Of a DNA stretch of 64,000 nt, positions 51,906 through 55,123 are shown one piece after another. The stretch's first letter is position 1, and each line of letters starts with the position of its first letter. Where the stretch lies: contig CAZERF010000001.1 in NCBI GenBank assembly GCA_964515375.1, positions 115,243 to 179,242 on the forward strand, given 5' to 3'. The notes beneath the pieces were generated by a model. That model was not told the DNA's origin. It saw nothing but the letters and a program-made list of their open reading frames with translations, and did not search any database. A program made the position numbers and the translations under genes. The stretch is from an uncultured Candidatus Saccharibacteria bacterium (GTDB lineage: Bacteria; Patescibacteriota; Minisyncoccia; Phycocordibacterales; UBA6899).

Positions 51906-52124
51906 TTATAATCTTTTGACGATACGGAGCTTTCCTCCGTAAGGGTTATCCTCAAGTGCTACCTTGTCCCCGATGATGACCTTGATGCGATGAATACGCA
52001 TCTTTCCAGAGAGATAGGCAAGGAGTTCCTTTCCATCCTCTGTGGAGACGCGAAACATTGTATTGGGAAGCGCTTCGACGATCGTTCCGATCACGTGTGC
52101 TTCCTTTTGCTTTTCTTCATTCAT
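51906..52124 (-). CDS. infA: Translation initiation factor IF-1
   Basis: S1-like OB fold (...[33 protein letters not shown]...). I take the start at the internal Met (MNEEKQ...). Confidence 0.9.
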
Positions 52125-52204
52125 TCTCAAAGTCGGTGATAGCATCCTAGCAAAAAGGTCATAATCGGTCAAGGCTTTCCTGTTGACAAACCCTCAAAGG
52201 GAGA

Positions 52205-53860
52205 TTATTCGGGGATCTCACGCACTATTTCAACAACAACATCCTTAGGGTCAGTTGGGTATGTATTCTTCCAAAATGGCCGAATTGTTGCCTTGACTCG
52301 CTCAACGTTTCGAAAATCATTGAACAAAAGTTTGAAATCTTTTTCCGCTCGTCCAAGAACAGCGTTCTTCATGATTGTTTCATCCACCTTCCAAACGATC
52401 TCCGGATTCCCTGATACTACGAACGGAATCTCGACGCTTTCCCAAAGCTCTTTTCCGGACATCTCGCCAAGTGTAAAGCGGAGAGCATCGATGTTTGTTA
52501 CTGCAACCGGTTCACCTTTGTAGGTTGGAATAACCGCACGCGCAATCGCACGCGCGAGTGCCTCTCGATCAAAAACAGGGAGATAGAGACTTCCCGTAGC
52601 GCGGACAACAGCGCGGTCATCTTCTGATGCGGTACTGGTTGAAAGAACTGCGTCTTGGATCTCGATAAGAAATGCTTTTTCGTATGTGACCTGAGAAGGC
52701 GAAATATCGCTGCGTGCTTTTGTGCGCAACTTTGTCTCGAGAGAGACTCGCAATTGCTCTTGTGCTGCACGCATCGCCTGATCAGAGACGATCTTTACTG
52801 TTCCCGATGCTCCTCCCGACAAGGCAGTCTTGGAGCGCGCATAGACTTTTGAGTATTGAGGAAGATCTTTTAGACCCGGAACGGTAAAATCGGTGGGCTG
52901 GCTGTTGTAATCCGGACCCGCCTCGTCGGCGTAGACGACAACTTCAAGAGTTCCGGGGGTAAGTTTTCCGGAAACCGTCCGTGCCTTCGGAACAACGATA
53001 GAGTCATTGATCCGGTATATCTTCCCTGTTGGACTTTGAAATCGAGTATTTTTTATGAGTCGCTGATCCGTTGTTTGCTCGTTATAGACAATGATCGTCC
53101 CCGAGGCCTTTGCGGTGACCGTTTTTGTTCCCGTCGCCATAACCTCAACAGAATCATCGAGTGTCACTTCCATAACAGAGAAACCGAGTGTGTCATCTGC
53201 CGGCTCCTTGTATGCGACAAGAGCGAGTTCTTCTTCGAGTTTGACCACTTCACTCTTCGGAATGACGAGCAGTGTTGTTTGAGCAAAGAAATTCGAAACA
53301 AAGACGAAGACAGCGATCAAAATGAGTGGTGTCACGAGCCACGGCAACCAGCTCTTGAGTGGGTTTCGTTCGGTGTTGTTTGAAGAGTGGGGAAAGTGTG
53401 GAGGAACAAAACGATCAGGGTCGACCTTGGGGGTGTCGGTTTTTTGATTGTAGGGCCATGTGCCTTCCGCATTTCGATCAGTCGTGGTGTTCTCGGAAGA
53501 GACGGAGGAGTGCGATTCCACCAATGATCCTCGCGCATGAGGAGAATCTTCGTAGAGATGTTCGAGAATCATTGCGCGGGGGTTTTCGGGGAGCATATCC
53601 TCGATCTCTGCAGCGTGGGGAGGCGGAATTTCCTTGCTTACTTCAGAAGGGGGCACGGGGGTTCCCTTTTCTTCTTTGTTGGGGATCGCCTTGGTCTTTG
53701 AGATTTCAGGCTCCTGTACATGATCCACGTGCTCCAAGGCATGCGTCGAGGCGGCACGACGTGTCGACTTCACTTCAGAAGTCCCTTGTTTCGCCCTGCG
53801 GCGTTCAGGAGGCACTATATCTTGGATCATGTATTTGGGCATATGGCGTTCGGAATTCAT
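52205..53860 (-). CDS. Hypothetical bitopic membrane protein of ~550 aa. It has a Pro-rich disordered cytoplasmic N-terminus, one TM helix (WLPWLVTPLILIAVFVFVSNFF), and a large extracytoplasmic domain.
   Basis: Long clean ORF. The track start at 53965 overlaps the upstream gene; the Met at ~53860 (MNSERHMPKYMIQ) avoids the overlap. No motif recognised. Confidence 0.5.
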   Translation of the reverse strand: MNSERHMPKYMIQDIVPPERRRAKQGTSEVKSTRRAASTHALEHVDHVQEPEISKTKAIPNKEEKGTPVPPSEVSKEIPPPHAAEIEDMLPENPRAMILEHLYEDSPHARGSLVESHSSVSSENTTTDRNAEGTWPYNQKTDTPKVDPDRFVPPHFPHSSNNTERNPLKSWLPWLVTPLILIAVFVFVSNFFAQTTLLVIPKSEVVKLEEELALVAYKEPADDTLGFSVMEVTLDDSVEVMATGTKTVTAKASGTIIVYNEQTTDQRLIKNTRFQSPTGKIYRINDSIVVPKARTVSGKLTPGTLEVVVYADEAGPDYNSQPTDFTVPGLKDLPQYSKVYARSKTALSGGASGTVKIVSDQAMRAAQEQLRVSLETKLRTKARSDISPSQVTYEKAFLIEIQDAVLSTSTASEDDRAVVRATGSLYLPVFDREALARAIARAVIPTYKGEPVAVTNIDALRFTLGEMSGKELWESVEIPFVVSGNPEIVWKVDETIMKNAVLGRAEKDFKLLFNDFRNVERVKATIRPFWKNTYPTDPKDVVVEIVREIPE

Positions 53861-53870
53861 CTGATAATGT

Positions 53871-55070
53871 TCACCACCGACGTTCGAGGCGAACGAATTT
53901 GTTTGCAAAAATAGTCTCGATGGCAAGGAATGGGTCTTGAAAGGCGGGTTCGAGCACCTGAACAAACTTAGTCAAAAAGGTGTTCCCCAATGCGCGAGTC
54001 ACAAAAACACCCTCTTCCTGAGAAAACTTTGTGAAATCCGTTTGACGCAATGTTTCTTCGAACCATTTCATCACGTCATCATCAACAGTATAAAATATAG
54101 TTCTTGGAATGGGAAATTCTGAGGCAAATTGAGTCAATGCGTCCTCAAAGAGCGAGAGCCATTCCCTTCCTGCGGTATCGAGCGCTTTCTTCACCTGCTG
54201 GGCATGTTCGCGCGTTGATTTGCCTTCCAAGTAGAGGTTGAGCTCCGAGGATGCGATATCCGGCGTTACCTCCATGACACTCATGAGCGCGCGGATCAAC
54301 ATATTTTTCCCCGCGGGAAATGTAATGGACTCGAGGAGTACATTATCCTTCGCAAGAGAGATGTCCGTCACTTCGCCGGAGATATCCATGAAAAGGAGGC
54401 TTGTCTCTTCGGTAAAAATATCGCGGATCACATCAAAGGTCGTGAAGGAAAATGAGGAGAAGTGCACATCAGGAACGTGCCAGAATTTGCGGATCGATTC
54501 ATTGATCGAACGGTAGATGTTGGCCGGGATCATGCTGATATAGAGAGCGATCTCGAGTTCGCTCGTCTTTTTTCCAAATGGGTTTCGTACCTCATAACCA
54601 TTCAGCTTCATCTGAATATTTTTTGATTCCATGATTTCGGGCGGGATGTCCCCCACCTTCGATCGGACAAAAAGTTTTGACTCACGAAAGAGATCGATCT
54701 CTTTTTGGATCAACTTGGAGAGACCTTTTTCCGTGACCGTGAAAGGGTCTTTTTGGTCATAGTGCACCAATCGGGTCTGAGACGCGTACCATGGGCTAGC
54801 AAGGACGCAAAAAGCGCGATCAACGCGCACACCTCCTCCCGCCTTCTGCATCACAAGAAACATCTCTTCCAATGTCTTGATCATTGAATCAAGAAAACGT
54901 TGGAAATTGAGTTTTTCTTGGAAAGGAATGTCTCGGCGGGTCGTAAAGATGATTTCGGGATTCTTTCCGCGTTCAATACGCACAAAAGCACCTCCGATCG
55001 ACGCGGAACCAATATCAAAAACGATGACAAAATGCTGACCGCTCTTTGCACTGCGGCGGAAAAGACTCAT
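53871..55070 (-). CDS. Actin-like ATPase (ASKHA superfamily) protein, PilM/FtsA-like
   Basis: Phosphate-1-like motif FVIVFDIGSASIGGAF near the N-terminus and phosphate-2-like motif LLFMDISGEVTDISL at about residue 225. 399 aa. Confidence 0.5.
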   Translation of the reverse strand: MSLFRRSAKSGQHFVIVFDIGSASIGGAFVRIERGKNPEIIFTTRRDIPFQEKLNFQRFLDSMIKTLEEMFLVMQKAGGGVRVDRAFCVLASPWYASQTRLVHYDQKDPFTVTEKGLSKLIQKEIDLFRESKLFVRSKVGDIPPEIMESKNIQMKLNGYEVRNPFGKKTSELEIALYISMIPANIYRSINESIRKFWHVPDVHFSSFSFTTFDVIRDIFTEETSLLFMDISGEVTDISLAKDNVLLESITFPAGKNMLIRALMSVMEVTPDIASSELNLYLEGKSTREHAQQVKKALDTAGREWLSLFEDALTQFASEFPIPRTIFYTVDDDVMKWFEETLRQTDFTKFSQEEGVFVTRALGNTFLTKFVQVLEPAFQDPFLAIETIFANKFVRLERRW

Positions 55071-55123
55071 ACTCTTTTATTGTACCACGCAAGCACAATA
55101 GTGAGAAAGTGTACAACCGGTAT

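Follow-up and report, generated by a model that had tools for sequence, protein, structure and literature searches.

A conserved gene pair between alaS and infA in Paceibacteria encodes an actin-fold protein and a bitopic partner with a baseplate-J-like barrel, a candidate membrane-spanning scaffold

We describe two adjacent genes, coding for a 399-aa protein (P1) and a 545-aa protein (P2; residues are numbered on the 545-aa form throughout), which on balance seem to form a two-protein membrane-spanning module on the PilM-PilN / FtsA-FtsN principle, a lineage-specific, housekeeping-type third FtsA/PilM branch in Paceibacteria (CPR). The pair is probably a new membrane-spanning scaffold, and our best reading is that its type of ectodomain has not been seen before in tether modules of this kind. 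The CPR/Patescibacteria account for a large share of bacterial diversity and, to our knowledge, almost nothing is known of their cell biology. The pair lies in a core-gene neighbourhood, yet in databases both proteins are annotated only as "hypothetical", and our literature search returned nothing relevant on P1-P2 pairing or on baseplate-J-like proteins in CPR.

Results

Gene models and layout of the locus

In the window, i.e. the whole 64-kb stretch of DNA that was analysed, alaS, P1, P2 and infA form a block on the minus strand (Table 1). The P1 ATG lies 53 nt after the alaS stop codon, the P2 ATG 28 nt after the P1 stop and the infA ATG about 80 nt after the P2 stop, in agreement with the co-orientation and tight spacing reported in the initial annotation. 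The P2 reading frame, which ends at 52205, can be read from several starts: the longest reading (from a TTG at 53965) overlaps P1, and the first ATG (53860) gives 551 aa. A conserved M-x-K-Y motif forms the first residues of the protein in 39/39 aligned homologues, and the protein deposited at NCBI is 545 aa long; thus, 52205-53842 was taken as the real P2 gene. Many homologue clusters, confident models and conserved synteny indicated that both P1 and P2 are real genes and not chance open reading frames.

Table 1. Positions of the genes, protein segments and promoter-like sites in the window.
Feature	Position	Strand	Remark
alaS, short form, 627 aa	55124..57007	(-)	conserved upstream neighbour
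Promoter-like site TTCTCA-17-TACAAT with TG extension	55079..55107	(-)	consensus scan, pattern match only
P1	53871..55070	(-)	399-aa cytoplasmic actin-fold protein, FtsA/PilM structural class, IC-type subdomain present
P2	52205..53842 (stop codon included)	(-)	545-aa single-pass (N-in) membrane protein, putative partner of P1
Conserved N-terminal cytoplasmic motif MPKYMIQDIVPPER (P2 residues 1-14)	53801..53842	(-)	predicted docking peptide for P1, binding inferred
Disordered cytoplasmic Pro-, Glu- and Ser-rich linker (P2 residues 15-164)	53351..53800	(-)	pLDDT 41-56, composition
Single TM helix (P2 residues ~165-187, WLPWLVTPLILIAVFVFVSNFFA)	53282..53350	(-)	AF2 helix
Extracytoplasmic beta-barrel, baseplate-J / GlxA-domain-2 type (P2 residues ~188-351)	52790..53281	(-)	
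Long helix, then alpha/beta C-terminal domains (P2 residues ~352-545)	52208..52789	(-)	
Pair of overlapping promoter-like sites, P2-infA gap (~80 nt)	52144..52189	(-)	consensus scan, pattern match only
infA	51906..52124	(-)	conserved downstream neighbour; first gene of the infA-rpmJ-rpsM-rpsK-rpsD-rpoA-rplQ block

Upstream of the pair, the window contains mnmA ... galU, a PLD-like gene, pyrH, tsaC and alaS, and the gene order upstream of P1-P2 is kept across the class (Paceibacteria relatives). Earlier, the pair had been regarded as an insertion that replaces secY-adk-map in the spc/alpha cluster. None of secY, adk and map is present within the window, and spc genes upstream of the pair were found neither in the window nor within 8 kb in any relative; the insertion is therefore unsupported, and the pair borders a free-standing infA-alpha block on its 5ʹ side. 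The related idea that it is part of a translation operon with high expression is unproven; promoter-like sites were found directly upstream of both P1 (ending 8 nt before its ATG) and infA. No RNA elements were found in the region in an Rfam scan.

Conservation and spread of the pair

In other Paceibacteria species, P2 directly followed P1 in 74/74 informative loci, with a median gap of 9 nt, and the adjacency held down to 33% P1 identity. Co-occurrence of both genes in relatives had been set beforehand as a test that could refute the module interpretation, and it was observed at every one of these loci. AlaS was encoded upstream on the same strand in all 66 informative loci, and infA was present downstream in 63 of 68. 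In the relatives compared, the links to alaS and infA were sometimes interrupted by insertions, the P1-P2 link never. Where relatives have extra genes between P2 and infA, these differ from clade to clade and thus give no functional clue.

Homologues formed 290 clusters for P1 and 507 for P2; the P1 family as a whole comprises about 3,200 clusters at 50% identity, and two strict peptide patterns still matched 104 species representatives. Roughly 700 hits of the P1 family are weak (E between 1e-10 and 1e-3). The pair is kept in the sampled Paceibacteria lineages, including Lloydbacteria, Nomurabacteria, Yonathbacteria and others, and near-complete genomes have it too, e.g. on the 598-kb contig JBAZKU010000001.1 and on contigs of 352 kb and 268 kb. 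The homologues listed range from 372 to 449 aa for P1 and from 322 to 622 aa for P2, and no fused P1-P2 forms occur among them.

P1 has the fold of FtsA and PilM

The 399-aa ORF at 53871-55070 carries both phosphate motifs quoted in the initial annotation, FVIVFDIGSASIGGAF and LLFMDISGEVTDISL, and the PilM/FtsA-like ASKHA fold proposed there was confirmed structurally: P1 has an actin fold with an IC-type subdomain, and FtsA/PilM structures match it far better than those of MreB, ParM, Hsp70 or sugar kinases. Sequence searches with Pfam, NCBIfam, phmmer and a profile against PDB sequences gave only noise as to the identity of P1, which is linked to FtsA/PilM by fold and not by sequence profiles.

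The phosphate-1 (DIGSASIGG) and phosphate-2 (DISGEVTD) motifs are present and conserved (D19, D229, G232, D236). At the adenosine position (strand 324-328, helix from 331), P1 has YT-x-DDD in place of the TGG of FtsA/PilM, and its phosphate-2 loop carries an invariant Glu. Judged from these residues, nucleotide binding may be altered or lost. The chain ends at residue 399, directly past the conserved core helix 380-396, and beyond the core there is neither a flexible linker nor an amphipathic membrane-targeting helix. Since the chain stops within about 10 residues of the last conserved core helix, P1 appears to be devoid of a membrane anchor of its own.

P2 carries a conserved N-terminal peptide on a variable cytoplasmic tail

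Each of the 71 relatives scored has a single predicted TM segment, and K+R are more numerous ahead of it than behind it (mean 3.2 vs 2.0), a positive-inside bias. About 360 residues extend past the membrane; the bitopic topology, with its cytoplasmic N-terminus and large extracytoplasmic part, was predicted correctly from the start. The expected size (~550 aa) was also close; however, the cytoplasmic part, given as ~190 aa, is in fact ~165 aa long because the TM helix lies at about 165-187. Its description as Pro-rich is accurate apart from that length, as Pro leads the composition (21/165), together with Glu and Ser.

The first ~164 residues of P2 are predicted to be disordered (pLDDT 41-56), and the linker is hypervariable, the TM helix starting anywhere from residue 38 to residue 222 among relatives. 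In an alignment of 40 sequences, every one has the Asp of the N-terminal motif, conservation of M, K and I reaches at least 90%, and not one of the ~150 columns after the motif is conserved. The motif, also tabulated for 73 loci, reads M-x-K-x-L-I-Q-D-I/M-V. Residues 1-12 are the sole conserved element of a disordered tail that varies between 38 and 222 aa, and therefore they show the pattern of a short docking motif. A likeness to the PilM-binding motif of PilN had been suggested as a check: a strongly conserved motif is indeed present at the extreme end of P2, but its sequence is L-I-Q-D-I/M-V and not I-N-L-L-P. The peptide that we propose for P1 docking is MPKYMIQDIVPPERRR, with the invariant Asp as Asp8. 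We also noticed that motif variants with PP or KV track the two main clades.

The P2 ectodomain contains a baseplate-J-like barrel

The barrel of P2 has the beta-barrel wedge-protein fold (Baseplate J / gp47 type) and includes the invariant block KASG..YN..Q.LI.NTRF..G..YR. This likeness to a phage baseplate-J protein was missed by the initial annotation. The barrel alone superposes well, and global TM-scores to baseplate-J proteins are at most 0.23. The only Pfam match of P2 is PF21110 (GlxA barrel), and comparison of P2 with PDB sequences gave noise only.

Discussion

Proposed module

We propose that P1 is a soluble actin-fold protein that would be recruited to the membrane through P2. P1 would bind the invariant peptide with which P2 begins, the probable site being the cleft between the IA and IC subdomains of P1. 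Residues 1-8 of PilN bind the IA-IC cleft of PilM (PMC6325625), and residues 1-8 of FtsN bind the same cleft of FtsA (PMC7613929). P2 would cross the membrane once and expose the baseplate-J-like (gp47/gp6-type) ectodomain, which probably oligomerises on the outer face, and the module could in this way couple the assembly or the nucleotide state of cytoplasmic P1 to an extracellular scaffold. Several observations speak against such a tether: the P2 motif is unlike both PilN I-N-L-L-P and the FtsN N-terminus, P1 has no FtsA/PilM profile link and carries the YT-x-DDD replacement, and good superposition of the ectodomain is confined to its barrel.

A more far-reaching version, which we offer tentatively and consider rather doubtful, is a Paceibacteria-specific envelope machine. 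In it, a third type of FtsA/PilM-like cytoskeletal protein, possibly no longer a normal ATPase, would act from within the cell via the peptide tether and order ectodomains derived from baseplate wedges into a ring or lattice, a phage-baseplate building block having been recruited to a core cellular structure. In ultra-small episymbionts, such a structure might serve as the base of a surface appendage, of an organelle for host contact or of an unconventional divisome.

If the tether reading is true, the FtsA/PilM family would gain a third functional branch, the principle of the N-terminal peptide tether would extend to a new partner, and a baseplate-wedge fold of phages would be seen to serve in a chromosomally encoded, membrane-anchored part of the cell. 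The pair also offers a concrete, testable way into the envelope organisation or division of ultra-small cells.

Alternative explanations

Alternatively, P1 could be the highly diverged FtsA of this lineage and P2 a divisome partner in the role of FtsN or FtsQ/DivIB, the module being the membrane tether of the Z-ring. We regard this as unlikely. The FtsA family PF14450 was matched by 3/32 P1 relatives (best E 9.8e-4), and hhalign to E. coli FtsA gave a weak, local alignment at phosphate-2 (E 0.0097); the window protein itself matched neither PF14450 nor SHS2_FTSA, the P1 profile did not match FtsA sequences in the PDB, and neither FtsZ nor FtsQ of E. coli had a tblastn match in the window or in 84 related loci. 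A candidate for a canonical FtsA in the same genome as the pair (tblastn of E. coli FtsA, L067) was rejected, as the match is MreB.

The pair could also be a variant alignment complex of a type IV or competence pilus, with P1 as PilM and with P2, bearing another ectodomain, replacing PilN/PilO (and PilP). This is improbable: a search for PilM_2 (PF11104) with E up to 0.1 found it in neither the window protein nor 32 relatives, alignment to E. coli HofM with hhalign gave no real match (E 0.7), P2 has no PilN/PilO-type periplasmic fold, and pilN/O(/P/Q) and pilB/C are absent from the locus. An FtsQ/DivIB-like or PilN/PilO-like identity of P2 was accordingly rejected.

Less probable still is that the two proteins do not interact, P1 being an ASKHA enzyme (a Ppx/GppA-like phosphatase or kinase) and P2 an unrelated surface protein next door. 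Weak Ppx-GppA matches in 5/32 P1 relatives (best E 3.9e-6) and a contact of the P1 profile with exopolyphosphatase at the phosphate-2 motif (E 0.2) point in this direction; we rejected the Ppx/GppA-type identity for P1 as a reading. Finally, the baseplate-J-like domain could mean that the region is what is left of a prophage or contractile injection system, but this is very unlikely and was rejected, as no other baseplate or tail genes lie beside P2, about 80 species have the locus at this one place, between alaS and infA and among housekeeping neighbours, the GC content of the P1-P2 region is similar to that of its surroundings, P2 is anchored by a TM helix and has a tail in the cytoplasm, and Pfam Baseplate_J (PF04865) had no match in 40 P2 relatives at E up to 0.1.

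Comparison with known systems

In PilM-PilN, the inner-membrane alignment subcomplex of the type IVa pilus (PDB 2YCH, 5EOU, 3JC8), the actin-like protein is likewise followed by a downstream bitopic partner with a conserved extreme N-terminal motif. The differences are that P1 does not match PF11104, that the P2 motif departs from that of PilN (in HofN, MNPPINFLPWR), that the cytoplasmic tail is about 20-30 aa long in PilN and 38-222 aa in P2, and that the PilN/PilO ectodomain has a ferredoxin-like fold whereas that of P2 is baseplate-J-like. Compared with FtsA-FtsN of the divisome (PDB 7Q6D, 7Q6I), P1 lacks the C-terminal amphipathic membrane helix: E. coli FtsA continues about 30 residues further, ending GSWIKRLNSWLRKEF, and P1 does not. 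Moreover, P1 has x-D-D-D at the site of the adenosine GG motif of FtsA, the locus has no ftsZ/ftsQ linkage, and the SPOR / FtsN-like periplasmic part is absent from P2.

GspL / EpsL of type II secretion follows the same idea, in that one TM helix couples an actin-like domain in the cytoplasm to a domain beyond the membrane; however, GspL is a single fused chain in which the actin-like domain is reduced, whereas P1 and P2 are separate proteins. From wedge proteins of the Baseplate J / Mu gp47 / T4 gp6 type (phages, eCIS, diffocin), P2 differs in being cellular and membrane-anchored and in having a cytoplasmic tail. The P2 barrel is of the same type as domain 2 of GlxA, the radical copper oxidase of Streptomyces lividans (PDB 4UNM; PF21110).

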